Source of the DNA: Thermoproteota archaeon
GTDB taxonomy: Archaea > Thermoproteota > EX4484-205 > JAAOZP01
Direction: 5' to 3'
NCBI GenBank assembly: GCA_049700215.1
Contig: JBNAVT010000012.1
Span: forward strand, 1-55,486
DNA: 55,486 nucleotides
Below are positions 21,730-43,194 of the stretch, one piece after another. Each line of letters starts with the position of its first letter. Position 1 is the stretch's first letter. The position numbers were made by a program, and so were the translations under genes. The notes beneath the pieces were generated by a model. The model did not search any database. It was not told where the DNA came from and saw only the letters and a list, made by a program, of their open reading frames with translations.

Positions 21730-22023
21730 TTGAAAAAAGTTAGTCTCTATCTTGACGAGGAGCTGTGGGTTAAGTTTAAAGAAGCCGTCTTAAAAAAGCA
21801 TGGAACCCTGAGAAAGCTAAGTGATGAGGTTGAAAATCTGCTTCGAGTCTCTATGATCAATGAGGATATTGAGAAAGCCTTTAAAGAGATGGGTCTAAAA
21901 GTAAAAGCAGTCTCTTCTCCTGAAGAGATAAAACGTGATAGACCTAGGCTCCGAGGCCCACCGTCAGAGGTTCTTGTTAGGAAGATGAGGAGTAGGCGGG
22001 TTGAAGTTTTACCTAGACAGTAG
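21730..22023 (+). CDS. vapB: Putative antitoxin (RHH-like DNA-binding protein)
   Basis: KKVSLYLDEELW.KFK beta-alpha pattern. Overlaps the PIN gene. The ORF starts at 21706, but TTG 21730 is likely. Confidence 0.65.
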   Translation: MKKVSLYLDEELWVKFKEAVLKKHGTLRKLSDEVENLLRVSMINEDIEKAFKEMGLKVKAVSSPEEIKRDRPRLRGPPSEVLVRKMRSRRVEVLPRQ

Positions 22024-22483
22024 TGTAATGGTTAAGCGATACGTATCTGAGACAGATAGCTCTACGGTAGACCATGTGTTCGATAAAGGTTGGGCAGGCG
22101 AGTTATCAATGGCTACATCCATCTGGAATATTGGCGAGGTACTGGGGGTGCTGGATGAGAGGAGAAGGAGGAAATGGCTTGACGAAAACGAGTTCGCAAG
22201 GGCTCTTGAAAGCTTTACAGGTGAAACCATAAGGTTGCTACACTTAAAAATATTAGAGGTGCTCCCGGTTCTAAATCCGATGCTTCTTGAAACCTGGCCT
22301 TTAATTTTAAAAGAACACGTCTATGAGGCTGATGCTCTTCAGATTCAAACCTGTATTTATTCCGACAGTGATATACTGTTGAGCAGCGATAAGGAGCTGA
22401 TTAGTGCTGCGCTAAAAACAGGTGTGAAAGCCGTAAACGTGAAAGATAAAAATAGAGTTAGAGAGTTGTTAAATGGAAAGTGA
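22001..22483 (+). CDS. vapC: PIN-domain toxin
   Basis: FYLDSS.MVKRY, conserved E (NIGE), EADALQI and SSD..L acidic residues. Confidence 0.85.
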   Translation: MKFYLDSSVMVKRYVSETDSSTVDHVFDKGWAGELSMATSIWNIGEVLGVLDERRRRKWLDENEFARALESFTGETIRLLHLKILEVLPVLNPMLLETWPLILKEHVYEADALQIQTCIYSDSDILLSSDKELISAALKTGVKAVNVKDKNRVRELLNGK

Positions 22484-24149: not shown

Positions 24150-24542
24150 GGTTACAAAACAAATCTTTTCTTCAGATAAGGCTTTAATCCAGAAATTATC
24201 AATGTATTCAAGGGATAGCTATTATAGCGCGCGCCTATCATAATATCTCGTATGCCTATTAGCTGGCCTTCTGACTCCAATTCTGCTTAGCGCGCGCTAG
24301 CTGATCTTAGGCCCATTTTGAGGATAATAAGTCGCTTCATCAACTTTTTTTGTGGCAATTGTTTTTTTGTTTTTCCCTGGATTTATAAGCACCATAGTAT
24401 AGTTCAAAGGCATTTATAATAGTTGCTGAAAGTAAAAACCCTTTCTTTCTAATTCTGTAATGAACGAGACGGCTTTTTCTATTCCTCTCAGCATGTCTAC
24501 CAGTATATCTGCGTCAATTATAACTTGGTTTCTAGTTTCCAT
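24150..24542 (-). pseudogene. vapC: Degraded vapC PIN toxin
   Basis: From ATG 24542: METRNQVIIDADILVDMLRG, frameshift, SATIINAFELYYGAYKS, frameshift, LMKRLIILKMGLRSASAR*AELESEGQLIGIRDIMIG. Similarity is lost after that. The 3' boundary is approximate. Confidence 0.8.
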
Positions 24543-24781
24543 TTTCCCCAAACCTCGGTGAGAGAAGCTCTGATTTCGGTCCACTCCTCGTTAGACATGT
24601 CCCAAGAACCGGCCAAATCTGTTATCTTAATCCCCTTTTCCCGCCTTCTTAAACTAAATAAATACTGCACAGCTTCATCCAATGAAACTAGGCGCTTCAT
24701 TTTTGTCTGTAATTCACCGGCTATTTCTGAACGCTTGGCGTATGTTTCTTTACTTATTTTGATAGTCTTTGTTTCAGTCAT
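24518..24781 (-). CDS. vapB: VapB-type antitoxin (intact)
   Basis: TKTIKISKETY..., ITDLAGSW.M..EE. Overlaps the vapC remnant. Upstream direct repeat GTGGTAAA x2 (24791-24807). Confidence 0.72.
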   Translation of the reverse strand: MTETKTIKISKETYAKRSEIAGELQTKMKRLVSLDEAVQYLFSLRRREKGIKITDLAGSWDMSNEEWTEIRASLTEVWGKWKLETKL

Positions 24782-25083: not shown

Positions 25084-25293
25084 CTAATCTTCAGGCAGAT
25101 ATAGCTCTTTAACTATCTGCATAGCCTTCTCTTCGCCAATAACACGCTTCAAATCCTTCAGAGATTCCTTACCTCTCCAAGAGTTCACAATGTTTAGAAC
25201 TAGTTCTCTAACGCCAGGGTTAAGGTCTCGCAGAGCGATTTCCACACGCCTCCTCCTGTTAAGAATATCATCCGGCCTATGAACTACCCCCAT
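25084..25293 (-). CDS. Small hypothetical protein
   Basis: 69 aa, charged and helical. Minus-strand TTTATAT box about 25 nt upstream. Confidence 0.55.
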   Translation of the reverse strand: MGVVHRPDDILNRRRRVEIALRDLNPGVRELVLNIVNSWRGKESLKDLKRVIGEEKAMQIVKELYLPED

Positions 25294-25327
25294 TCCGACT
25301 AAATACTCTCGCTAGAAATATAAAGCT

Positions 25328-26392
25328 TTAGGGCGATATTACCGGCGTCCAACCGAAGAAATCGAGTTTAACTGCTTCCCCTGGTTCCGCAGGCGCGAAA
25401 AGCATTCTCAACCCGGTGGCCCTGTCTTTCAACATGCTTATTTCAAAAAGGTCTTTTAAAACACCCTCTACAAGCCTGCTGGGCGCATCGTCTGAAACCA
25501 CAGTCATGTCAACCCCTGAAACGCATGCTGAAGCCAAGTGTACAAGATCCCTGAGCTTAACATCTCCGGCTGCCACTCTTTCCTTCAGAACATTGTCTTC
25601 AGCAACGGGCAGCATAACCTCGTTATAGCCTGTCGCCTTTATTCCTGCTGTTTTAACAGCGTTCCCTATCAGGCTGTTTATCTCTCTAATCGTGCTAAAG
25701 GTCCCTGGCAGCGGTATTTTAACCCCGGAGGCGAACTCAACTATCTCTGCAACGCTCTCCTCCATCCATGGCGATAGCGAGGCGTCAATCCCGTAGTAGT
25801 TTACCCCGAGCCTCTCTGAAAGCCTCAGACCAACCTTCTCGGTTGAAGCGTAGACTTCGGCGAGAATGTCTTGAAACTGGCTGAGAAGCTTGTGTCTGAG
25901 GAGGCTCGGGTAGAGTAGAGATATTGCCAGCCCTTCTTCACCATGCAGGTTGCACGCCGACGGGAAGTAGGGCGTAACCATTTCTCCACCCATGTTGACG
26001 CATATCCTGCTCCCATTGGAAGGGTTTTTTTCACAGGCTTTCCTCAAAACGTTTTCAATGCTCTTAACACTGTTGATGCTCCTCATGTTTATCGACACGT
26101 ATAGCCCGTTTTCAGCAACCTCCGCAACCTCCTCTAAAGCCGGATGCTTATCCTCAACCTGGCCTATCGAAACATAGTTGACAATGTTTAGATCAAGAAG
26201 CTGAGAAGCCCTTTTCATAGGGGTCTCCTGGCTATCTAAGGGTGGAAGCGCAACCCTAGTGCTCCAAACGCTTTCCGCTAGAAACATTGATTCAATGTTG
26301 AATGAAAGCATCGAACCCAGGTTGAAAATGCGCTCCCTAAGGCTCTGTGAGTCTCCAGAAGACACGAAAAGCGTCACAGACCTTATTTTCAT
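25328..26392 (-). CDS. DUF711 (UPF0210, PFL-like fold) family protein
   Basis: KIRSVTL, TPYFP, GIDASLSPW, GYNEVMLPV.EDN.L and C.SGVDM. Confidence 0.8.
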   Translation of the reverse strand: MKIRSVTLFVSSGDSQSLRERIFNLGSMLSFNIESMFLAESVWSTRVALPPLDSQETPMKRASQLLDLNIVNYVSIGQVEDKHPALEEVAEVAENGLYVSINMRSINSVKSIENVLRKACEKNPSNGSRICVNMGGEMVTPYFPSACNLHGEEGLAISLLYPSLLRHKLLSQFQDILAEVYASTEKVGLRLSERLGVNYYGIDASLSPWMEESVAEIVEFASGVKIPLPGTFSTIREINSLIGNAVKTAGIKATGYNEVMLPVAEDNVLKERVAAGDVKLRDLVHLASACVSGVDMTVVSDDAPSRLVEGVLKDLFEISMLKDRATGLRMLFAPAEPGEAVKLDFFGWTPVISP

Positions 26393-26444
26393 TCCGAGTT
26401 ATTAGTGCGTCTCCTTTTTAAAAGGCTTTCTTACTATAAAACTC

Positions 26445-26605
26445 GGCGAGAAAGTCCACGTCTTTTAAGCGTAGCGCGCGCGTGCTCGATGAGGATAATG
26501 GGTGGGCCGTAGGCAAATGCCTGCGGTAATTAATAACCAGGCCCATTGTATCTAGCAAGCCCTGAGCCGGGAGCCTCACGCTAAGAAGCTGGGGATCGTA
26601 TACTA
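26445..26605 (+). mobile_element. Candidate non-autonomous IS200/IS605-derived remnant (end hairpins plus omegaRNA-like structured segment)
   Basis: AAAGTCCACGTCTTTTAAGCGT at the left and GGGAGCCTCACGCT-AAGA-AGCTGGGG at the right resemble IS605-family subterminal hairpins. A multi-stem structure lies between them. No transposase ORF. Confidence 0.45.
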
Positions 26606-26650
26606 CTGTCCAAAAAAGTTTATTAAATCCCACATGTTTCCCCCGCCGGG

Positions 26651-27655
26651 TTGTCAGTAATCCAGCTGATAAAGGACAGGGCTAGGCGGAGGCCGATGAG
26701 GATTGTCCTGCCGGAGCCTGAGGATGAGAGGATACTTAGGGCGGCTGCAGCCTCTTCGGAACAGGGTGTTGCAAGACCGGTGCTTCTAGGCCCGAGGGAA
26801 ACTGTGGATAAGAATGCTTCCAGACTAGGCTTACCCTTAACCGGAGTTGAGGTTCTTGAACCATTGACATCAGGCTACTTGGATGGTTTTATCGAAGAAT
26901 ATTGCAGGGCTAGGGAGGAGAAGGGTGTCAGCGAGGCTGTTGCAAGAAGAATACTCAGCAGGCCGCTCTACTTTGCGTGCATGATGGTTAAGACTGGTCT
27001 GGCTGACGGCATGGTTGCCGGCGCCTCCACTACCACTGCTAACGTTATTAAGGCCAGTCACCTTGTAATCGGGTACGAGGAGGGGGTTGAAACACCGTCC
27101 AGTTTCTTCATAATGGAGACCAGTAACACGAGCATCGGTGAAAACGGTATCCTGATTTATGCTGACGCTGCCGTAAACCCGGACCCTACTCCGGAGCAGC
27201 TTGCGGACATAGCTGTAGCCACGGCTAGAAGCGTAAGGAGGCTCCTGGGATGGGAGCCGAGGGTTGCGATGCTCTCCTTCTCAACCAAGGGTAGCGCTAT
27301 ACACCCGCTTGTGGATAAGGTGGTTAAGGCCACGGAGATCGCCAGGAGGAAGGCGCCTGAAATCAAGATTGACGGGGAGCTTCAGGCTGACGCGGCGCTA
27401 GCAATGGAGGTGGCTAGGAGGAAAATGAAGGACCCTGGGCTGGTCGCGGGTAGGGCGAACGTCTTAATATTCCCGGACCTGGATGCTGGAAACATCGCGT
27501 ACAAGCTTACTCAATACGTGGCTGGGGCTGGAGCCTACGGGCCTATCCTGCAGGGTTTCAAGAAGCCTGTCAGCGATCTTTCCAGGGGCGCTAAGGTTGA
27601 AGACATCGTCGGGGTCATCGCGGTGGTCTCTGTTCTAGCGCAGTCAGCCGGGTGA
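26651..27655 (+). CDS. pta: Phosphate acetyltransferase (short class I)
   Basis: IVLPE.ED.R, AMLSFSTKGS, DGELQADAA, FPDLDAGNIAYK and GPILQG..KPVSDLSRG. Confidence 0.93.
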   Translation: MSVIQLIKDRARRRPMRIVLPEPEDERILRAAAASSEQGVARPVLLGPRETVDKNASRLGLPLTGVEVLEPLTSGYLDGFIEEYCRAREEKGVSEAVARRILSRPLYFACMMVKTGLADGMVAGASTTTANVIKASHLVIGYEEGVETPSSFFIMETSNTSIGENGILIYADAAVNPDPTPEQLADIAVATARSVRRLLGWEPRVAMLSFSTKGSAIHPLVDKVVKATEIARRKAPEIKIDGELQADAALAMEVARRKMKDPGLVAGRANVLIFPDLDAGNIAYKLTQYVAGAGAYGPILQGFKKPVSDLSRGAKVEDIVGVIAVVSVLAQSAG

Positions 27656-28863
27656 GAGGGTTGCCGGGTAAGATACTTGTCGTAAACTGCGGCAGCTCCT
27701 CGATAAAGTATAAGCTTTTCGACGCCGACTCGCTGAAAGGCATTTCCAGCGGGCTGCTGGAGAGGATTGGAAGCAGGCCGGCGGTTCTAAGGCATGAGGT
27801 TGGTGGAGCCTCGGCAAAGAGAGAGGTTGATGTTTCAAACCATAGACAGGGCCTGGAGCTTATTCTAAGGGTTCTCCTCGAGGCTGAGCCCAAGGCTATT
27901 AGGTCGCTCGAGGAGATCGTTGCCGTTGGACACAGGGTTGTTCACGGCGGGGATGCTTTCTTCGAATCCACCCTTGTCGACGAGAAGGTTCTGGAGGCTC
28001 TTAGGAAATGGTCTCACCTGGCGCCCCTCCATAATCCTCCCAACATAGCGGGTATAGAGGCTGCGCGAAGCCTTCTTCCAAGGGTTCCTCAGGTAGCTGT
28101 GTTCGACACTGCTTTCCACCAGACCATGCCTGAAACCGCTTATCTCTACGCTATACCTTTTGAGCTTTACGAGAAGCTGGGGATCAGGAGGTATGGTTTC
28201 CACGGGACAAGCCACAAGTATGTTGCTCAGAAGGCTGCTGAAATCCTTGGGGTGCCTATTGAGAAGCTCAGGATAATAACCTGCCATCTGGGTAATGGGT
28301 GCAGCATCACCGCCGTTAAGAACGGCCGCTCGATAGACACTAGCATGGGTTTCACGCCTTTAGAGGGCCTGGTCATGGGGACTAGGAGTGGGGACATAGA
28401 TCCGTCGATAGTCTTCTACCTGATCGGGGAAGGCTTCTCCCCAAGGGAGGTTGAAGACATGCTTAACAAGAAGAGCGGGCTACTGGGCGTTTCAGGCGTT
28501 AGCAACGACATCAGGGATGTGGAGAGGGAGGCTGAGGCCGGTAGCAAGAGGGCTAGGCTCGCGCTGGAGATCTTCGCGTACAGGGCTAAGAAGTATATAG
28601 GCGCCTACGCCGCGGTTCTAGGTGGGTTGGACGTGCTCGTCTTCACAGGAGGGATAGGTGAGAACGATCCTCTAATGAGGAGAATGATATGCGGCAACAT
28701 GGGTTTCCTAGGGTTGGAGATCGACGAGGAGGCTAACAGGGTCACGGTTGGTAAAACCGGGGTTATAAGCGGGAAACAGTCTAGGATTAAGATTCTAGTC
28801 ATACCGACTGACGAGGAGCTCGCTATAGCTGAGGAGACTAGGAAACGCTTATTAAACCATTAA
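27652..28863 (+). CDS. ackA: Acetate kinase
   Basis: NCGSSSIKY, GHRVVHGG, APLHNP, FDTAFHQT, YGFHGTSH, HLGNG, TSMGFTPLEG, FTGGIGEN and IPTDEE. Confidence 0.96.
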   Translation: MRGLPGKILVVNCGSSSIKYKLFDADSLKGISSGLLERIGSRPAVLRHEVGGASAKREVDVSNHRQGLELILRVLLEAEPKAIRSLEEIVAVGHRVVHGGDAFFESTLVDEKVLEALRKWSHLAPLHNPPNIAGIEAARSLLPRVPQVAVFDTAFHQTMPETAYLYAIPFELYEKLGIRRYGFHGTSHKYVAQKAAEILGVPIEKLRIITCHLGNGCSITAVKNGRSIDTSMGFTPLEGLVMGTRSGDIDPSIVFYLIGEGFSPREVEDMLNKKSGLLGVSGVSNDIRDVEREAEAGSKRARLALEIFAYRAKKYIGAYAAVLGGLDVLVFTGGIGENDPLMRRMICGNMGFLGLEIDEEANRVTVGKTGVISGKQSRIKILVIPTDEELAIAEETRKRLLNH

Positions 28864-28892
28864 AAGTATAGTGCTGGCAGCGGTGAGAGGAA

Positions 28893-30173
28893 TTGAAAGT
28901 CTGCCTGTTCGAGGATGAGAAGTTCAACCTGCTCTACCCTTTAACGCTCACAAGGGCTTCTTTCGAGCTGAGATGCGGGTCGATGACCCTGGTTGAGAGA
29001 ATCAGGAGGATCAACCCCGGTATAGAAGTCTCGTTTTTCCTAAGGGACCACTTGGCGCCGGTTCTTAGGGAAAGGCTTGGAAACGCTGTTGTGAACAGCC
29101 TTGAAGACCTTGGTAGGGATGACGTTATTCTGGTTAACGGCAGGTGGCTTCCTGAGCACGGTCGCCTCCCGATCGAGGGGGATGAGACCGTTGCTACATG
29201 CAGGGGTGACGTGGTGTATATTCGCGCGAAGAGGGAAACGGTTAGGAAAAGCCTCTCCGACAGCCTTCAGAAGACTATTGAGAGCCTGAGGTCTGAGCTC
29301 AGCGTTGAGGAGGTTGAAGCCCGGATGGTGGAGTATCCTTGGCACCTGGTCCAGTATAATCATGAGCTGCTTAAGGAGGATTTTGAAGCATACTGGTCCA
29401 AGAGGGAGGGGGTTAAGGCTCTGGGGGAAATGGTTGCAGTCTTCGGCGATAAGAGCCTGCTCAACGTTAGTAGGAGTGCAGCCATACATCCTTTCGTCGT
29501 GCTGGACACGAGCTCCGGCCCAATAATGGTTGACGACGGCGCTAGGATATACCCGTTCAGCCGCATAGAGGGTCCCTGCTATATTGGCAGAGATACTTGG
29601 ATAGTTCGTGGAAACATTAGGGAGGAGACGAGCATCGGGCCTGTCTGCAGGGTCGGCGGTGAGGTTGAGGCGAGCATCATCCAGGGTTATTCGAACAAGT
29701 ATCACACGGGTTTCCTGGGCCACGCTTACGTCGGCGAGTGGGTTAACATAGGTGCTTTAACTACGAACAGCGATTTGAAGAACGACTATAGCACTGTCGA
29801 CGTGTACGTGAAGGGGAGGCTTATGGACACGGGGGACCTTAAGGTAGGTAGCTTCATCGGGGATCATTCGAAGTTCGGCATAGGCTGCCTGCTGAACACC
29901 GGGACCGTAGTGGGGGCGGCATGCGTAATGCTGGGGGGAGAGGTTCTTCCAAAATATATTCCGAGCTTCTGCTGGTATGCGGATGGAAGGCTGAGGAGGG
30001 GCGCTGGCTTCAGGAGGACTGTTGAAGCAGAGAGGAGGGTTATGTCCAGGAGGTCTGTAGTAATGTCGGAGAGCTACGTCAGGATGCTTGAGAAAATATA
30101 TCAGGACACTAAGGAGGAGAGGGAAACTTTAATAAGGAAGGCTGAGATGAGGCTGCAACAGGGAGGTCTATAG
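28893..30173 (+). CDS. GlmU-related protein: divergent sugar-nucleotidyltransferase-like N-domain plus left-handed beta-helix acyltransferase
   Basis: N-terminal LFED....LYPLTLTR...ELRCG (alternative bacterial GlmU type, no GxGxR). Hexapeptide repeats. SNKYH.GFLGH.YVGEWVNIGA.T.NSDLKN active-site region. Confidence 0.82.
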   Translation: MKVCLFEDEKFNLLYPLTLTRASFELRCGSMTLVERIRRINPGIEVSFFLRDHLAPVLRERLGNAVVNSLEDLGRDDVILVNGRWLPEHGRLPIEGDETVATCRGDVVYIRAKRETVRKSLSDSLQKTIESLRSELSVEEVEARMVEYPWHLVQYNHELLKEDFEAYWSKREGVKALGEMVAVFGDKSLLNVSRSAAIHPFVVLDTSSGPIMVDDGARIYPFSRIEGPCYIGRDTWIVRGNIREETSIGPVCRVGGEVEASIIQGYSNKYHTGFLGHAYVGEWVNIGALTTNSDLKNDYSTVDVYVKGRLMDTGDLKVGSFIGDHSKFGIGCLLNTGTVVGAACVMLGGEVLPKYIPSFCWYADGRLRRGAGFRRTVEAERRVMSRRSVVMSESYVRMLEKIYQDTKEERETLIRKAEMRLQQGGL

Positions 30174-30174
30174 A

Positions 30175-30423
30175 ATGTCGGTTGAGGAGAAAGTTAAGAA
30201 GATCATAGCTGAACACTTCCGCGTCAGCGCTGAGAGCCTGAAGGATGATACTTCGCTTGTGGATGACCTTATGGCTGAATCCATAGACACCGTTGAGCTG
30301 ATCGCGACCTTCGAAGAGGCTTTCAACCTGGAGATTCCTGAGGAGGAGGCAGAGAGAAACCAGACTGTCGGGCAGGTTGTGGAGTACATAAAGGCTAAGC
30401 TTGCTCAAGCGGGGCACTGCTAA
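30175..30423 (+). CDS. acpP: Acyl carrier protein
   Basis: 82 aa and acidic. VKKIIAE...SLVDDLMAESIDTVEL...EEAF..EIP.EEAE...TVGQ.VEYI aligns with AcpP, with the phosphopantetheine Ser at position 36. Confidence 0.9.
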   Translation: MSVEEKVKKIIAEHFRVSAESLKDDTSLVDDLMAESIDTVELIATFEEAFNLEIPEEEAERNQTVGQVVEYIKAKLAQAGHC

Positions 30424-30440
30424 ACGTATCTCCAGCAGGC

Positions 30441-30821
30441 TTGATAATCGGGGTTGGCGTGGATGTTGTTTCGATAAGCAGGGTTAGGAAGGCGGTAGAA
30501 AGACGTGGGGAAAGTTTCCTCAGCAGGGTTTTCACAGAAAGAGAGCTTGAACATTGTTTTCAATCGGGATATCCCTACGAGAGGCTGGCTGCCAGGTTTG
30601 CTGCTAAGGAGGCGGTTTTCAAAGCCATAGGCCAGGCTAGCAGGAGCCGGCTGGGGTGGAAGGGTGTTGAAATCGAGGCGGGTGGCTCAGTAGCTAGAGT
30701 TGTAATGAGTAAACCCCTCACCAGCCTTCTCCGCGAGAAGGGTGCGAGAAACATTTTGATCAGCTTAAGCCATGATAGGACGAGTGACGTTGCTATCGCT
30801 GTAGCCTTGCTTCTAGCATGA
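30441..30821 (+). CDS. acpS: Holo-ACP synthase (4'-phosphopantetheinyl transferase)
   Basis: IIGVGVDVV...R, F...E, LAARFAAKEAVFKA and ISLSHD. Confidence 0.93.
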   Translation: MIIGVGVDVVSISRVRKAVERRGESFLSRVFTERELEHCFQSGYPYERLAARFAAKEAVFKAIGQASRSRLGWKGVEIEAGGSVARVVMSKPLTSLLREKGARNILISLSHDRTSDVAIAVALLLA

Positions 30822-30880
30822 TTATCGGGCTACTGTGGCTGAACACTTTCCCCGGCGCACGCAAAAAGCGTGTGAAAGTT

Positions 30881-32839
30881 CTAGAGCCTTCCACCCAAGG
30901 CCTTCGCAAACCCGATTACTTTTTTAGCTAGGCTCCTCGCCTCCTCCATGCTGCTCCTCGCCTTCTCCCAGTTTCTCCAGGTTTCGAAAACCGTTTCAAC
31001 TATCTGCGTATCCGGCAGCCCACCGTATTCTTTGAGAAAGTCTTTAATGCTTTTCTCAATATTGTTCACATAGACGCCCTTAATGTTTAGCGCAGCCTGA
31101 ACAAGGCGTAGCGCCGTCTCAACCGCTTCGTAAGCCAGAAGATCCGGCAGCTGCTCCGCGGTGAAGTCGTAACCGCCGGAGTTATACTCTGCCAGCATTC
31201 TCTGCTCATCCATTTCAACAAGCTTCTCCAAGCGTTCAACCCTCCGGTAATAGTTGTCCCAAATTGTTTTACCGTTTTCCTTCAGAGCCTCCTTGGCGGA
31301 TTCTGAAAAGCCTTGTTTAAACAGCCCTTTTTCACACGCCTTTTTCAAGGCAAGCATGAATTCATCCGTCTTCACAACCCTGTAGGTTTCACCATCCAGT
31401 TTTCTGATTACGCTGCGTAAAACCGGCATTTTAACCTCCTCCCTAACATGGACGGCTACGAATAATGGCCTTGCTTTACAGCCTTCCACAAGCCTCTTCA
31501 ACTCTTTCAGAATATCTGTTGAAGCCGAAGCGTAGAGTGAAGTGTGAACGTAAGGAGTATTGTTGGCGAAGACCGTTGGCTCAAAGGCTGAACCCGCGTA
31601 GCCATGCAGGAACCCGTAGCATTTTTCAATCTTTTCGGCATAGGCCTCAGGGATATTAGGGTCTTCAAGCTCTTGGTAAGCCACCCTAGGGTCACGGTTC
31701 ATGATTAGTATAGACCTTAAATCACACGCCTCCATATACCTCCTGGTGTGCTCGAGAAACTCGTCGAGACGCTTGTTAACGCTTGGTGCAGTGTAGCCCG
31801 CTCCAGAGGGCCCCGCTATGAAATAGTCGTTGGCCGTCGCAGTCCTGTAGTAGTATTCAAGCATTCCGGGCGCCAGGTCCAGCAGCAGTGGCTGAACCTC
31901 CCAGGTGTAGGGGAACCTTCCCCTCTGGCTGTCAAGCCAGTTCAGGTTTTGAAAATTGTTCATCGCCCAAACAGCATCCCCGTCCGACTGGACGAAAACC
32001 ACGTAAACCTTGTCTTCTAACAATACCCTGCTGGCGTGCTTCTGTTTAAACTTGAAACCGGTTTTTATGCCCGCGTGGACAGTCAGGTTTGGAGACTGCA
32101 GGTTGCAGAGCACGAAGAAACCGTTTCTAGAGGCTCTTGCGACAGCCTCAGACTCCAAGTCCCTGATGCAATGCCATCCTAAAACTACTCCGAGCGAGTT
32201 GAAGGAACCTAGAATCCTGTCGAACAATTCTGCTTCGCGGCGGTCCCTAGCCTTGGTGGAAAGGTCGAAGGAGAATGCTTTAACCGCAACAAGATAGTCT
32301 CTAACATGATGCTTGTTCGTGAAGGATGTTAAAGGAGGGTCTACGCATACGCTTCCGACAATCCTCCTGTTACACTGTTGCAACAGGTTTTGAAAAGCCC
32401 ACTCGTAGGCTTCAAGCCTGCTTCCCCATCTACCCCTGAAGTCGGCAGCCTTCTTGAAGCCCGCTTCAGAAAGCTTTTCCGCAACCTCTGGGGAAGCTGG
32501 GACCAAGTTGTGAATGCTGCCATACGTCATCGCGACGTTCGCAGAGTGCAGCATCCCTTCATCATACACCACAAACCCGGATACCTCTTTTCTGAAGGAC
32601 GCCAATAACTCGTAGGGGTCGTTAAACTCCTCATGCTTCACCCTGTATCTTCTCCCGTATATTGATAGCCACAGCCTGTCCACGTAGTCGTCGAACACAA
32701 GGTAGACCCTCGGCTTAACACGGTTTATCAAGCCCTGTGCGCAAGCCATCGTCATCTGTTCATGCCAGGAGTATGGTCGGGCGTCAAGCACTCTAAGCTT
32801 CCCAGGCTTCTTAAAAGCCGGGAAGATACTGTCCTTCAC
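30881..32839 (-). CDS. GxGYxYP family putative glycoside hydrolase/deacetylase-fold protein
   Basis: QGLINR..PRVY, RDYLVA, VLGW, SDGD, P.TW...P.L.DLAP..L.YYY..AT.ND.F.AGPSGAGY. Confidence 0.8.
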   Translation of the reverse strand: MKDSIFPAFKKPGKLRVLDARPYSWHEQMTMACAQGLINRVKPRVYLVFDDYVDRLWLSIYGRRYRVKHEEFNDPYELLASFRKEVSGFVVYDEGMLHSANVAMTYGSIHNLVPASPEVAEKLSEAGFKKAADFRGRWGSRLEAYEWAFQNLLQQCNRRIVGSVCVDPPLTSFTNKHHVRDYLVAVKAFSFDLSTKARDRREAELFDRILGSFNSLGVVLGWHCIRDLESEAVARASRNGFFVLCNLQSPNLTVHAGIKTGFKFKQKHASRVLLEDKVYVVFVQSDGDAVWAMNNFQNLNWLDSQRGRFPYTWEVQPLLLDLAPGMLEYYYRTATANDYFIAGPSGAGYTAPSVNKRLDEFLEHTRRYMEACDLRSILIMNRDPRVAYQELEDPNIPEAYAEKIEKCYGFLHGYAGSAFEPTVFANNTPYVHTSLYASASTDILKELKRLVEGCKARPLFVAVHVREEVKMPVLRSVIRKLDGETYRVVKTDEFMLALKKACEKGLFKQGFSESAKEALKENGKTIWDNYYRRVERLEKLVEMDEQRMLAEYNSGGYDFTAEQLPDLLAYEAVETALRLVQAALNIKGVYVNNIEKSIKDFLKEYGGLPDTQIVETVFETWRNWEKARSSMEEARSLAKKVIGFAKALGGRL

Positions 32840-32984: not shown

Positions 32985-34142
32985 ATGGAGCCGTTCAACC
33001 AAGTTAAGTATTCAAGTATTCTCGAGGAGAACAGGAGGCGTGTTGAGAAAGCGGCTGAGTTTAAGGAGCCAGACAGGGTTCCAGTAGTCATAGGGCTTGG
33101 AGGCCCATACTATGCTAGGCTCTTCGGATACACGTTCGCCGAATACTACAATGACATGAGTATAATGCTGGATGCCCAGGTGAAGGGGTTGAAATGGAGG
33201 CTGGAATGGCTTAGAGACGATTTAACGGGGATAGGGGTTCACCTCGACCTTGGAGCCATATCTGAAGGCATAGTTTTCGACTGCAGGGTTGAAATGCCTG
33301 ATGAGGGAAACCCGTGGCTCAGCCCTTGGATAATACCCAGGATTAAGACTCTCGAGGATATCGATAGGCTGGAGGTTCCGGATCCGCGTCGTCACAAAGG
33401 TATTCAGGCCTACTACGAGAGGCTTGAAAGGTTCAGGGAGCTCGTTCGCAAAAACTATGATGGTCTTCCAGTCGGCGGCTGGCTTCAGATACATCCGCCG
33501 GTTTCAGCCGCTGGCTCTCTAATCGGCCCTGAAAAACTATACCGGTGGCTCTATGAGAATCCTAGTGAGATGCATAGGCTTTTCAGAAAACTCGAGGAGG
33601 CTTTCAACGTTCTCCAGGAATACTACTATGAGCTTTCCGGGTCAGGGCCAGGAAGCCTCGGCTTAGCTGACGACCATTCAGGCTACTTGAATAGGAGGAT
33701 GTACGAGGAATTCACGCTGCCTTACAACCTTAGGCTTTACGAGCGGCATGGCGCTAACCACCGGTACCTTCACATGGATTCACACATGGATCACATAACG
33801 GACATACTTGTGAATGTTTACAGGATAGACGAGGCTGACGTAGGTGTTGAGAACAATATTGAAACGATTGCTGGAGCATTCAAGGGGAAAGTTTTCTTCA
33901 ACGGCAACGCGGACTGGAGAGCCTTGTTAGACGGTTCTCTTGAGAGGGTTGAGCTCGAGGTTGAGAAATGCGTGTTCCACGCTGCACCGGGCGGCGGCTA
34001 TGTTTTCGACAACGGTGGCGAGACCTATGCCGACATATCTCCTGAAAGATTAAGGTACGAGGTTGAATACGCTAAAAAGGTTGGAAGGTATCCGATCAGG
34101 AGAGAGTGCTTCAAACACTTAAACAGGTTTTTAAAGCCTTAG
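32985..34142 (+). CDS. UroD/MtaA family protein
   Basis: KEPDRVPV, LADD, YEEF.LPY, GNAD and APGGGYVF. Confidence 0.8.
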   Translation: MEPFNQVKYSSILEENRRRVEKAAEFKEPDRVPVVIGLGGPYYARLFGYTFAEYYNDMSIMLDAQVKGLKWRLEWLRDDLTGIGVHLDLGAISEGIVFDCRVEMPDEGNPWLSPWIIPRIKTLEDIDRLEVPDPRRHKGIQAYYERLERFRELVRKNYDGLPVGGWLQIHPPVSAAGSLIGPEKLYRWLYENPSEMHRLFRKLEEAFNVLQEYYYELSGSGPGSLGLADDHSGYLNRRMYEEFTLPYNLRLYERHGANHRYLHMDSHMDHITDILVNVYRIDEADVGVENNIETIAGAFKGKVFFNGNADWRALLDGSLERVELEVEKCVFHAAPGGGYVFDNGGETYADISPERLRYEVEYAKKVGRYPIRRECFKHLNRFLKP

Positions 34143-34153
34143 CACCGTGTTCT

Positions 34154-35287
34154 TCAACCAATCCTTATCGGGTATGTCCCGCTTCTAAAGCCTTCGTCGA
34201 GCATTGCAAGATAGTTTTCTAAAGGCACGTAGTTGGCTACAGTGTTTCCGGAGCCTAGAGCATAGGCACCCCCTGGCGCACACCTCCTGATTATCAGCCT
34301 AACATGCTCTCTCAGGCTTTTCTCGGGCAGCTGAACAAGCTTATTCATGTCTACACCGCCCAGTACCGCTATCTCATTCCCATACTTCTCCTTAACCTCG
34401 TATACCGGCATTATGTTGTCCTCAAAAGAATGTTTAGCATCTATCCCAACGCTGTCCACAAGATCATCCATTACTGTTCTCCCTGTTTCGTCAGGAGTGT
34501 ACAGGTTCCCGCAGGAATGAATTATGAAGGGAAGTCCTTTCGAATGCGCCAAGTCGGCCAGCCTCCTATAGTTTGGGAAAACGTATTCCCGTAGGATTCT
34601 GGGTGACAGAAACGTGCCCGTCTTATATCCTAAGTCGTCGCCCATTCTCAGGGCGTCAACATACCCCTCCTTAACTATTCTCTCGTCTAAGGCAAGTATG
34701 AGTGAGGCAATCTTGCTGAACATTTTTTCAACAAGCTTTCTATCCAGATGCACAGCCCTGCAGAGTTTTCCAAGGCCCATCAGCCAGCTAACGTGCTCGA
34801 AGAATCCTCCGGCAACTCCTCCAACAATCCCCATGCCTTCAGGCAGCTTTCTCCTAAGCCTTTCAAAAACTGAAAAATCCAAGGCTTCCTCAGGGTTTGG
34901 CCAAGGGTATTTTTCGAAATCCTCGATTGTTTCAATCACCCCCCTGTTCTCATCCTCCCAAGTCCTCTTCCCGCGGGAAAGATAGGCAATGTCCCTCGTC
35001 TGAAGAAGATTGGTTCTAGGGAGTTTGGGTGAGACCTCCATGGGGACATAATCGTATCCAAGCCTAGAATAAAAGTCAACCAGGGTTTCCAGGTATTTCT
35101 CTGAACGCAAGCCTTCCTCGGCTAAAGCCTTGGACACCGGCTTACCGGTTAACGCCTCAATAACCTCGTTGTCTACGAAGTGCTCGTAGAAAGGCACTCT
35201 ATCCGGCTCTCCCTCCCTAAGGAGCACTTTAAGCAGCCTGCCCATGTTAGGGTTCCTAGACACGTTCCCCCCACTGTTTCCCGACAA
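34154..35287 (-). CDS. UroD/MtaA family protein
   Basis: GEPDRVPF, GDDLG, IHSCGN, GGVD, GGAYALGSGN and VPLENY. The start may be the GTG a few codons downstream. Confidence 0.84.
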   Translation of the reverse strand: MSGNSGGNVSRNPNMGRLLKVLLREGEPDRVPFYEHFVDNEVIEALTGKPVSKALAEEGLRSEKYLETLVDFYSRLGYDYVPMEVSPKLPRTNLLQTRDIAYLSRGKRTWEDENRGVIETIEDFEKYPWPNPEEALDFSVFERLRRKLPEGMGIVGGVAGGFFEHVSWLMGLGKLCRAVHLDRKLVEKMFSKIASLILALDERIVKEGYVDALRMGDDLGYKTGTFLSPRILREYVFPNYRRLADLAHSKGLPFIIHSCGNLYTPDETGRTVMDDLVDSVGIDAKHSFEDNIMPVYEVKEKYGNEIAVLGGVDMNKLVQLPEKSLREHVRLIIRRCAPGGAYALGSGNTVANYVPLENYLAMLDEGFRSGTYPIRIG

Positions 35288-35372: not shown

Positions 35373-36437
35373 GTGAGCATCAGGGAGAAGAAGCTTCGAG
35401 TCATAGACATTAACGGTTGCGGATGGATCCCGTGTAGACTAGGGATTTTCCCAACGACTTGGAGCAAGTATAGGGAGAAGCTTGAAGAACTTCTCGCCAA
35501 GCATTCAAGGCTTTTCCCAGGCTTCGAAAAGGGGAGTGTCGACTTCAGCAACTTCGGAGCCAGGGTAAAGGGGAAAGAGGTCTTAGACGCCTTCGGATGC
35601 TTATGGAGGTTTAACATAAGCGGGCTACAGGGGCAGGTTGTGAAACACCCCTTGGAGGATTGGGCTAGCCTGGTAAGCTATCGTCTACCAGACCCGGAGA
35701 AAGGTATTGTTCAGGAGGGAGGGGGCATCGACACTTGGGATACGGTTGAGGAGAGAATAGAGAGGGCGAGAAGCATGGATGACATTGTAGTTGGAAGCAT
35801 GCCCCACGGGTTCTTCTTCCAAAGGCTCTACTACCTGAGGGGCTTTAAAAACCTGATGATCGACTTCGTCAGAAACCCTAGTCGGCTTGAAAAACTAATA
35901 GAGATGCTTACTGAGTATAATCTCGCCCTAGTTGAGAGGCTCATCAGGCTCAGGGTTGACATGGTTTCCTTCGGGGACGACCTGGGTCTTCAGGACAGAA
36001 TGCCCATAAGCGTCAAAACATTCAGAAGATTCATCTACCCTTCATACAGGAAAATATTCCAGAGGGTCAAGGGCTCGGGAATAAGGGTTTACCTGCATAC
36101 TGATGGACACGTAATGGAGGTGGCTGATGCTCTAATAGAGGCCGGGGTTTCTGTTTTAAACATTCAGGACAGGGTTAACGGGATAGACAGCATAAGGGAG
36201 AGGGTTAAGGGGAGGGTTTGCATCGACCTGGATATAGACCGGCAGCTCATAGTGCCTTTCGGCAGCCCTGAAACGATCAGGAGCCACATACGTGAGGCTG
36301 TCTTCAAACTTGGCTCTGAGAAAGGGGGTTTAATGATGTACTCTGAGATTCACGCTGATGTTCCGCTTGAAAACATAGACGCTGTCTGCACAGCCTTCGA
36401 GGACTTCATGAATCATTATGGTGGATGCGATGGGTGA
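35373..36437 (+). CDS. UroD/MtaA family protein (close paralogue of 5465-6538)
   Basis: DAFGCLW, HPLEDW, RLYYLRGF.NLM.D, GDDLG.Q, LHTDG, DIDRQ and DVPLENI. Confidence 0.84.
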   Translation: MSIREKKLRVIDINGCGWIPCRLGIFPTTWSKYREKLEELLAKHSRLFPGFEKGSVDFSNFGARVKGKEVLDAFGCLWRFNISGLQGQVVKHPLEDWASLVSYRLPDPEKGIVQEGGGIDTWDTVEERIERARSMDDIVVGSMPHGFFFQRLYYLRGFKNLMIDFVRNPSRLEKLIEMLTEYNLALVERLIRLRVDMVSFGDDLGLQDRMPISVKTFRRFIYPSYRKIFQRVKGSGIRVYLHTDGHVMEVADALIEAGVSVLNIQDRVNGIDSIRERVKGRVCIDLDIDRQLIVPFGSPETIRSHIREAVFKLGSEKGGLMMYSEIHADVPLENIDAVCTAFEDFMNHYGGCDG

Positions 36438-42618: not shown

Positions 42619-43194
42619 GTGAGCCTGTTTAAGAAACTCAGGGATAAGGTTACCCCGCCCAGGGTAAACATATCTTTGTTTCTGAAGAAACAGATCTTCT
42701 ATCTTGGTGACAACGTGGAGGGTGCAGTACAGGTTGAGTCTCAGGAAGAGTTTGACTGCGCTGAGATAAGGTGCGAGCTTGAGTGTGTCGAGCGGGTACG
42801 TAAAACCAGGAGGGTTTATGACGCTTCTCTTAAAAGGGAGGTTGAGCAACAAGTCTGGGATTCTGCAGTCATATTTTCAGCTAGACCACAGTTGGCTGGG
42901 GCTCTGCACGTTCCCGAGGGATTTGTCCAAAGCTACCAGTTTAAAATCCTAATCCCTCCTGGAGCCCAGCCTTCTTTCAAGAGCCTAGATAGGGTTGTGG
43001 CCTGGAATCTGAAGGGGGTTGCTGCTGTAGAAGGGCGGCCTGATGCGACGAGTAAAACCATCGAAATACAGGTTTCCCCGCCTTCACTGGTTCAGCACGC
43101 AATATCCACTGTTTCATGCAAGTATTGTGGAACTGTTTTCCCGCAGGGTGAGACCAGGTGCCCTAACTGCGGTGCGCCTCGAACAGCCCAGTAG
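42619..43194 (+). CDS. Arrestin-N/Spo0M-like beta-sandwich protein with C-terminal zinc ribbon
   Basis: L.K..FYLGD.VEG.V.V, F.I.IP....PSF.....V.W.LKG arrestin-fold pattern, then CKYC...CPNC. Confidence 0.65.
   Translation: MSLFKKLRDKVTPPRVNISLFLKKQIFYLGDNVEGAVQVESQEEFDCAEIRCELECVERVRKTRRVYDASLKREVEQQVWDSAVIFSARPQLAGALHVPEGFVQSYQFKILIPPGAQPSFKSLDRVVAWNLKGVAAVEGRPDATSKTIEIQVSPPSLVQHAISTVSCKYCGTVFPQGETRCPNCGAPRTAQ

Follow-up and report, generated by a model that had tools for sequence, protein, structure and literature searches.

Peptidoglycan, lipopolysaccharide and S-layer glycans, as well as N-glycosylation, all depend on UDP-N-acetylglucosamine (UDP-GlcNAc) as their point of entry. GlmU is a target for antibiotics. 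According to Whaley 2021 (PMC8666670), Escherichia coli GlmU binds acyl carrier protein (ACP), with an apparent Km of 20 µM for acetyl-ACP versus 400 µM for acetyl-coenzyme A (acetyl-CoA). The same report asks how widespread the use of acetyl-ACP is and treats the Mad decarboxylases that make it as proteobacterial. Co-purification of AcpP and GlmU is reported for Pseudomonas aeruginosa (PMC6158461), and an AlphaFold2 (AF2) model of an AcpP3-GlmU3 complex is presented in PMC10863985. Here we analyse a five-gene cluster, pta-ackA-LbH-ACP-acpS (26651-30821; LbH, left-handed β-helix protein), in a 55,486-nucleotide stretch of the genome of a hot-spring Thermoproteota archaeon (GenBank assembly GCA_049700215.1, contig JBNAVT010000012.1, positions 1 to 55,486), hereafter the window. 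The cluster is real and archaeal, was acquired as a unit and is part of a widespread module. In our judgement there is an even chance that this module is a laterally acquired, mainly bacterial system for carrier-protein-dependent N-acetylation of glucosamine phosphate toward UDP-GlcNAc; the best available reading of its genes is amino-sugar acetylation that depends on ACP and is supplied by AckA and Pta (phosphotransacetylase). The gene content suggests that sugar precursors for the cell envelope receive an acetyl group delivered bound to a protein.

The LbH protein and the absence of full-length GlmU

The LbH protein belongs to TIGR03991, covering profile positions 1-394, and also matches PF13562 (83.6 bits), while it fails the canonical GlmU family TIGR01173 (21.7 bits vs 366.85). 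Its AF2 model (pLDDT 92.7) consists of a nucleotidyltransferase-like N-domain, a left-handed β-helix acetyltransferase domain and a C-terminal three-helix domain. The best fold match is ST0452 (TM 0.60), followed by bacterial GlmUs. Residues 208-352 align with ST0452 residues 242-389 (E = 2.8e-15; profile E = 2.7e-22), and His271, at the catalytic position of the β-helix, is invariant in 54/54 LbH sequences; the aligned His of ST0452 and GlmU is catalytic. The GlmU-like character that a first-pass annotation of this DNA had assigned to the protein is thus borne out by family membership, by homology of the β-helix to ST0452 and by the invariant His271.

For the N-domain, sequence comparison with solved nucleotidyltransferases gave no significant match. 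Active nucleotidyltransferases carry a GxGxR...K signature; the N-terminal consensus of the LbH family, MK..IFED.K...LYPLT..RPVFELRCG, has no Gly-rich loop, no Lys of this kind and no recognisable GxGxR/PK signature. To judge by these sequences, the nucleotidyltransferase-like domain appears catalytically degenerate and the GlmU/ST0452-type β-helix domain intact.

Genomes that carry the module lack the standard enzyme. A search for canonical glmU, advised in the first-pass annotation, found full-length TIGR01173 GlmU in 0/16 carrier genomes; five carrier bacteria have an ORF (open reading frame) of ~260 aa matching only GlmU positions 2-243, the uridylyltransferase half. In a sample of 101 Planctomycetota genomes (20 TIGR03991 carriers, 81 non-carriers), full GlmU occurred in 1/20 carriers versus 44/81 non-carriers (Fisher p = 3e-5, phylogeny ignored); 12 of the 20 carriers had the N-terminal GlmU part only, and 7 had nothing at E<=1e-40. 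TIGR03991 is therefore inversely associated with full-length GlmU. The replacement holds for the acetyltransferase half only, with many carriers keeping a stand-alone uridylyltransferase half. Because of the inverse association, and because there are carriers with the uridylyltransferase half only, the LbH protein is most likely a glucosamine-1-phosphate (GlcN-1-P) N-acetyltransferase standing in for the C-terminal half of GlmU. For the other steps of the pathway, the window genome holds NagB, a phosphohexomutase (396 bits) and nucleotidyltransferase-only candidates.

Separately, Planctomycetota and other carriers without a stand-alone GlmU-N contain large ORFs with a GlmU-N-like nucleotidyltransferase domain (G006:C33, G015:C66 and G005:C44, ~912-917 aa; G012:C19, 842 aa; G010:C37, 826 aa). 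The one in G015 lies ~2 kb from nagA. These ORFs may encode fused sugar-1-phosphate uridylyltransferases.

Distribution and gene neighbourhood of the module

Searched against species-representative genomes, the LbH query had at least 545 relatives; linkage was counted on the best 80 loci, which by record title comprise 66 bacterial and 12 archaeal loci and 2 that carry no domain label. The bacterial carriers include Planctomycetota, Omnitrophota, Latescibacterota, Poribacteria, Ratteibacteria, Zixibacteria, Elusimicrobia, Firestonebacteria, KSB1, Dependentiae and others. Among 72 loci with sufficient flank, 50 carry a same-strand ACP gene 0-400 bp downstream of LbH, and in 45/65 pta or ackA ends <=400 bp upstream of LbH; by blastp, ACP ORFs occur at 62/80 LbH loci. 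A further recurrent neighbour is nagB, encoding glucosamine-6-phosphate (GlcN-6-P) deaminase (50/80 loci by ORF clustering, 51/80 by tblastn), and the commonest bacterial gene order is nagB-pta-LbH-ACP-ackA. In Thermofilaceae genome G003 (locus L037), a 399-aa ORF with only the SIS half of GlmS stands directly beside the module ACP (C11:391101-392141). Its sequence resembles a putative GlmD-type GlcN-6-P deaminase, in place of the bacterial NagB. Contig C69 of the window genome carries a bacterial-like nagB.

The linkage of ACP, LbH and pta/ackA is conserved; it recurs across numerous phyla of bacteria and in a few lineages of archaea. A functional connection of ACP and the LbH enzyme with Pta/AckA and with amino-sugar metabolism is supported. 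What does not survive is the initial framing of the cluster as an archaeal pathway: the module belongs chiefly to bacteria and came to archaea by lateral transfer, and the acpS gene is the archaeal add-on.

The window genome carries a second TIGR03991 protein (G000 contig C7, locus L095, 1444-2682, - strand; 412 aa, 245-248 bits) that shares 32% identity with the module protein. Neither ACP nor pta or ackA adjoins its gene, which lies between aldo-keto reductase-like and methyltransferase-like ORFs; the protein belongs to the ACP-unlinked kind of TIGR03991.

The recurrence of nagB also admits a catabolic scheme, in which the LbH reaction would be reversed, passing the acetyl group of GlcNAc-phosphate to the private ACP, from which Pta and AckA would yield acetyl-phosphate and ATP; NagB would draw off GlcN-6-P, and use of a private carrier would keep the step apart from the acetyl-CoA pool. 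In this scheme nagB, pta, LbH, ACP and ackA make one linear pathway with no step missing. NagB is catabolic in textbook GlcNAc use, and the hosts and the window neighbours are glycan degraders (GH38, GH127, GxGYxYP). NagA makes a mixed test: it falls below the cut-off in 8/16 carrier genomes, as the scheme would have it, and is present in the window genome and 7 others of the 16, which speaks against it. Amide-to-thioester transfer is uphill, by a roughly estimated +15 to +25 kJ/mol from standard free energies. The inverse association with full-length GlmU points to a biosynthetic need, and the β-helix domain resembles sugar-1-phosphate acetyltransferases, not 6-phosphate enzymes. We regard the catabolic scheme as the most improbable of the alternatives considered here.

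A private carrier protein and its activating enzyme

The module ACP is the only PP-binding protein in the whole genome, and the single ACPS match genome-wide makes the module AcpS its only 4'-phosphopantetheinyl transferase. Both proteins exceed their family cut-offs (TIGR00517 and TIGR00516), in agreement with the early identification of an ACP with Ser36 and its activating AcpS. Ser36 is invariant in 63/63 aligned module ACPs; in the window ACP it ends the motif D-L-M-A-E-S, with A-E-S instead of A-D-S in 48/63 module ACPs.

Fatty-acid synthesis does not account for the carrier. Across the whole 94.6%-complete genome there were 0 matches to FabD and 0 to FabA/FabZ. The sole ketoacyl-synt match (19.7 bits) is a 390-aa thiolase-like ORF adjoining an ACP_syn_III_C match on contig C15; because both models also score in archaeal control genomes, we infer that this pair is a thiolase and a hydroxymethylglutaryl-CoA (HMG-CoA) synthase rather than a true ketosynthase. 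Pfam found no polyketide synthase (PKS), non-ribosomal peptide synthetase (NRPS) or Fab domains in the 29 window ORFs scanned, ~15 ORFs at 1-10.4 and 48-55 kb lying outside the scan. The earlier statement that no fatty-acid synthase accompanies the cluster therefore holds for the scanned ORFs and extends to the genome, including any type II fatty-acid synthase (FAS-II) elsewhere in it. This archaeon has no other client for its ACP.

Carrier genomes of archaea and bacteria differ in this respect: exactly one PP-binding protein was found in each of 5 archaea and two in 6/11 panel bacteria. AcpS is adjacent in 8/9 archaeal versus 5/54 bacterial loci (Fisher p = 3e-6, phylogeny ignored). Since AcpS adjacency is mostly archaeal, and the archaea have one ACP where six of the eleven panel bacteria have two, we regard the ACP as the module's own carrier, whose activating enzyme archaea had to import alongside. 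According to PMC3533463, few archaea own an ACP and its machinery, gained from bacteria. The module explains the presence of ACP and AcpS in a few archaeal lineages without a fatty-acid synthase, and offers a clean case of a multi-gene transfer obliged to carry its own cofactor-activating enzyme.

The ACP might instead be a non-catalytic regulatory or structural partner, or the acyl group or acceptor might be another one, such as propionyl, galactosamine-1-phosphate (GalN-1-P) or a non-sugar amine. AckA is of the acetate/propionate family, ST0452 also acts on GalN-1-P, which counts for another acceptor, and the C7 paralogue could be the housekeeping enzyme. Moreover, PMC6158461 describes numerous proteins outside FAS that ACP binds in E. 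coli and in P. aeruginosa. Against a non-catalytic role, the invariant Ser36 and the co-transfer of AcpS into archaea argue for chemical use of the phosphopantetheine thiol, and the nagB or GlmD-like neighbours point to glucosamine rather than another acceptor. These possibilities seem to us quite improbable, if a shade less so than the catabolic scheme.

Proposed mechanism and source of the acetyl group

In the pathway that we favour, AcpS would turn the private apo-ACP into holo-ACP, whose thiol would then be acetylated. The likeliest route would lead from acetate to acetyl-phosphate (AckA) and on to acetyl-ACP, through a Pta-family enzyme acting like PlsX reversed; acetyl-CoA would be an alternative entry. 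The TIGR03991 protein would move the acetyl group from acetyl-ACP onto GlcN-1-P, like E. coli GlmU, and uridylylation would fall to a separate enzyme. GlcN-6-P could come from NagB (contig C69) or from salvage via NagA. In our judgement GlcN-1-P is likely to be the acceptor, and acetyl-ACP is somewhat more likely than not to be the donor. For ACP as the donor, the argument is linkage together with the precedent of E. coli GlmU; strong comparative support exists for the acetyltransferase role alone. The mechanism put forward in the first-pass annotation is thus supported in part: amino-sugar acetylation by a GlmU-like enzyme has comparative backing, and the Pta step is a proposal.

The module Pta is the only PTA_PTB gene in the window genome. 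It conserves Ser311, Arg312 and Asp318 (MtPta Ser309, Arg310 and Asp316) and keeps the equivalent of MtPta Arg87 (PgPta Arg89), while the equivalent of Arg133 (PgPta Arg135) is Lys134. According to PMC6461089, this Arg touches the β-phosphate of acetyl-CoA. Among 50 module Ptas the position is Arg in 8, Gln in 30, Lys in 9 and Glu in 3; it is Arg in 27/28 free Bacteroidota Ptas, 2/28 of which have a short LbH-like flank match. A divergent Pta-like gene stands immediately after LbH-ACP in the planctomycete G095 (L145, 1703-2707; 139 bits to TIGR00651, 35% identity to the window Pta). Its Arg133 equivalent is Ala, and its Asp316 equivalent does not align. This locus has no adjacent ackA, and a TIGR03960 B12-binding radical SAM gene comes after the Pta-like gene. 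That Pta loads holo-ACP directly is a tentative proposal drawn from analogy, one we lean against. A fully CoA-independent acetyl economy, in which the Pta-family enzyme would charge the private ACP and the GlmU-like enzyme would draw exclusively on acetyl-ACP, seems somewhat less likely again.

A series of observations weighs against AckA/Pta-fed, ACP-dependent acetylation. The module Pta is the only PTA_PTB protein in 11/16 carrier genomes and keeps its catalytic residues, so it may be an ordinary housekeeping acetyl-CoA enzyme. The Lys in the window Pta is a conservative change, and the Arg133 equivalent is kept in four Thermofilaceae Ptas and in those of loci L010, L011, L045 and L049. Pta (E<=1e-60) occurs in 9/20 planctomycete TIGR03991 carriers versus 38/81 non-carriers, and only 4/18 fetched planctomycete TIGR03991 loci have an adjacent ACP, those most similar to the window protein. 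Because TIGR03991 lacks Pta dependence in Planctomycetota and few planctomycete loci have an ACP, there is an ACP-linked subfamily within TIGR03991. The ACP-less C7 paralogue means that the module copy need not be the housekeeping enzyme, and the presence of NagA in the window genome makes a catabolic context possible. Between 62 ACP-linked and 15 unlinked TIGR03991 proteins, 11 positions differ, with no gained basic patch and no docking surface. All the co-occurrence and association tests, moreover, ignore shared ancestry. A complex prediction for three copies of LbH residues 186-426 with ACP scored 0.46, and one control 0.42, which speaks neither for binding nor against it.

Some of these points suit an arrangement with the same acetyltransferase and ACP, in which Pta and AckA would be ordinary acetyl-CoA/acetate enzymes merely co-regulated at the acetyl node. 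Acetyl-ACP would then have another origin, such as acetyl-CoA:ACP transacetylation by the LbH enzyme itself, or loading by AcpS with acetyl-CoA as donor. The sole Pta with intact catalytic residues and the independence of TIGR03991 from Pta in Planctomycetota fit this arrangement, as do LbH-ACP loci without pta or ackA within 6 kb (e.g. L019, L022, L035, L064, L066, L076 and L082). AcpS is also reported to accept acetyl-CoA (PMC8666670). Yet pta or ackA abuts LbH-ACP in most loci, and the ACP gene separates LbH from ackA in many phyla. The Arg that binds the CoA β-phosphate is replaced in 42/50 module Ptas, and G095 has its divergent Pta-like gene after ACP. Loading by AcpS from acetyl-CoA would be single-turnover unless a phosphodiesterase recycled the carrier. 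On balance we consider mere co-regulation unlikely, though clearly more plausible than the catabolic or the non-catalytic alternative.

If the CoA-independent scheme is true, UDP-GlcNAc synthesis (or, in reverse, ATP-yielding GlcNAc de-acetylation) would be insulated from the acetyl-CoA pool, and archaea would have their first pathway that depends on ACP without relation to the synthesis of fatty acids, polyketides or peptides. Pta would gain a second substrate class. Were private acetyl-ACP made from acetyl-phosphate the donor across many bacterial phyla (among them Planctomycetota, Omnitrophota, Latescibacterota, Poribacteria, Ratteibacteria and Dependentiae), the textbook acetyl-CoA step would not be universal. 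The module would also offer a candidate answer to the questions, put in PMC8666670, of how far the use of acetyl-ACP by GlmU extends and what supplies it outside Proteobacteria.

Evolution of the module

In an LbH tree built by a quick method with midpoint root only, archaea fall into at least 2 clades, one Brockarchaeota-like and including the window sequence, the other Thermofilaceae, with three singletons apart; all archaeal rows are nested among bacteria. A FastTree phylogeny of Pta splits the module Ptas from 30 'free' Ptas at a 98% branch. Bacteroidota served as the free-Pta control, the phylum of G014 being a poor one (31 genomes, 7 with Pta, most of them module-linked). Two module-linked Bacteroidota Ptas group with the module Ptas of other phyla, apart from 28 Bacteroidota Ptas. 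Because module Ptas group together across phyla, the data fit movement of the module as a unit.

The cluster in this archaeon was probably acquired from bacteria. Of the donor question raised at the outset, the nesting of archaeal copies among bacteria is answered by the tree; the direction of transfer, from bacteria to archaea, is inferred from the breadth of distribution and not from a rooted test.

Gene cluster, host genome and surroundings

The five-gene layout given in the first-pass annotation is borne out by the ORF list in order, strand, overlap and gaps: five co-oriented ORFs with a 4-nt overlap of pta and ackA, followed by gaps of 29, 1 and 17 nt (Table 1). In Pfam and NCBIfam scans all five proteins score above curated NCBIfam cut-offs, and the starts of the LbH gene (MKVCLFED...) and acpS (MIIGVGVD...) match their family profiles from position 1. 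ARAGORN placed a tRNA-Leu(aag) at 28283-28369 (+), within ackA; Rfam gave no tRNA there at the gathering threshold, and the call is probably a false positive.

Table 1 Genes of the cluster and further features of the window
Feature	Position	Strand	Length (aa)	Family evidence
pta, phosphotransacetylase, PTA_PTB family	26651..27655	+	334	PTA_PTB 368 bits; TIGR00651 336.2 vs cut-off 311.2
ackA, acetate/propionate-family kinase	27652..28863	+	403	Acetate_kinase 521 bits; TIGR00016 523.5 vs 293.4
TIGR03991 alt_bact_glmU LbH protein	28893..30173	+	426	NTP_transf_4 + Hexapep; 371.8 bits vs 225.3
Acyl carrier protein, PP-binding	30175..30423	+	82	TIGR00517 81.3 bits vs 70.45; Ser36
AcpS, holo-ACP synthase, ACPS	30441..30821	+	126	TIGR00516 66.1 bits vs 59.8
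PIN-domain ORF	22001..22483	+		
Small ORF	24518..24781	-		
Small ORF	25084..25293	-		
URO-D-family paralogue	32985..34142	+		
URO-D-family paralogue	34154..35287	-		
URO-D-family paralogue	35373..36437	+		
Archaeal ORF	42619..43194	+	191	Weak Arrestin_N and Rgp1 matches, E = 2e-7 each

The host genome (85 contigs, 2.09 Mb in total; completeness 94.6%, contamination 0.8%) has an archaeal small-subunit (SSU) rRNA on contig C49 (RF01959, 712.6 bits). The closest copies of the cluster are in metagenome-assembled genomes (MAGs) labelled Nitrososphaerota, Thaumarchaeota, Crenarchaeota and Brockarchaeota. Two of them, in Nitrososphaerota- and Thaumarchaeota-labelled MAGs, sit on 181-kb and 280-kb contigs with the same flanks, DUF711 upstream and GxGYxYP and URO-D downstream; the loci of one Brockarchaeota MAG and another Nitrososphaerota-labelled MAG are 58% identical. 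Logan contigs of a ~94-95% identical relative, from three further hot-spring runs of different studies, bridge both cluster junctions, at 25143-26942 (DUF711|pta) and 30375-31934 (ACP-AcpS|GxGYxYP). Since the flanks recur on long MAG contigs and both junctions are bridged in independent metagenomes, the locus is archaeal and no chimera at this place. Together with the archaeal SSU rRNA, this upholds the archaeal host originally claimed and excludes a bacterial or chimeric contig.

The neighbourhood in the window is one of glycan use, encoding GH38, GH127 and GxGYxYP together with an FGGY kinase and an ABC transporter. Three adjacent URO-D-family paralogues with an MtaA/CmuA-like methyltransferase fold follow shortly after the module; they may have to do with the metabolism of methyl compounds that has been proposed for Brockarchaeota. 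Upstream, the PIN-domain ORF and the two small ORFs could be toxin-antitoxin-like. The 191-aa archaeal ORF of Table 1 stands further downstream.

Comparison with known systems

LpxA and LpxD are likewise LbH trimers; their acyl donor is acyl-ACP and their acceptor a sugar nucleotide derived from glucosamine. LpxD is described as docking ACP on its C-terminal helical domain (PDB 4IHF; PMC10863985). ACP docking on the C-terminal helices of the window LbH protein would be conceivable by analogy only. LpxA and LpxD differ in using long 3-hydroxyacyl chains from FAS-II, and the window protein is only marginally similar to them (TIGR01853, 18.3 bits).

PlsX, an acyl-ACP:phosphate transacylase, is homologous to Pta. 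It would serve as a model for acyl shuttling by a Pta-family enzyme between phosphate and the ACP thiol. The window Pta, in contrast, is a bona fide Pta by TIGR00651, with no PlsX family among its Pfam and NCBIfam matches.

Bacterial-type Pta-AckA pairs occur in archaea, in Methanosarcina and in Bathyarchaeia and related MAGs. Lateral acquisition of pta-ackA by an archaeon, as described in PMC4522649, is a feature shared with the window. Here the pair differs in heading an operon with a GlmU-like acetyltransferase, ACP and AcpS, an arrangement for which our literature searches found no description. Those searches, with supplementary files outside their reach, found no paper describing the module, and none under the names TIGR03991, PF13562 or NTP_transf_4.

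ST0452 of Sulfolobus tokodaii (PDB 2GGO, 5Z09), the best match in sequence as well as in fold, shares with the window LbH protein the two-domain architecture, the long β-helix loop and the aligned catalytic His. ST0452 has an active nucleotidyltransferase domain and uses acetyl-CoA. The window protein differs in its extra C-terminal three-helix domain, its ACP partner gene and an N-domain without significant match.

The closest functional parallel is E. coli GlmU, an LbH GlcN-1-P N-acetyltransferase that binds ACP, takes acetyl from acetyl-ACP and supplies UDP-GlcNAc, a role that the module would share. E. coli uses its housekeeping AcpP, and its acetyl-ACP comes from FAS-II malonyl-ACP via the malonyl-ACP decarboxylase MadA. 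The module instead has a private ACP, no FAS-II, neighbouring Pta and AckA, and an enzyme of another family, TIGR03991, with an apparently degenerate nucleotidyltransferase domain. The initial claim of an undescribed ACP-dependent sugar acylation cannot be kept, the chemistry being known from E. coli GlmU and its preference for acetyl-ACP (PMC8666670). Because of that preference, a GlmU-type enzyme with a private ACP is a variation on demonstrated chemistry; what is new here is the private ACP itself, the Pta/AckA link and the presence in archaea.

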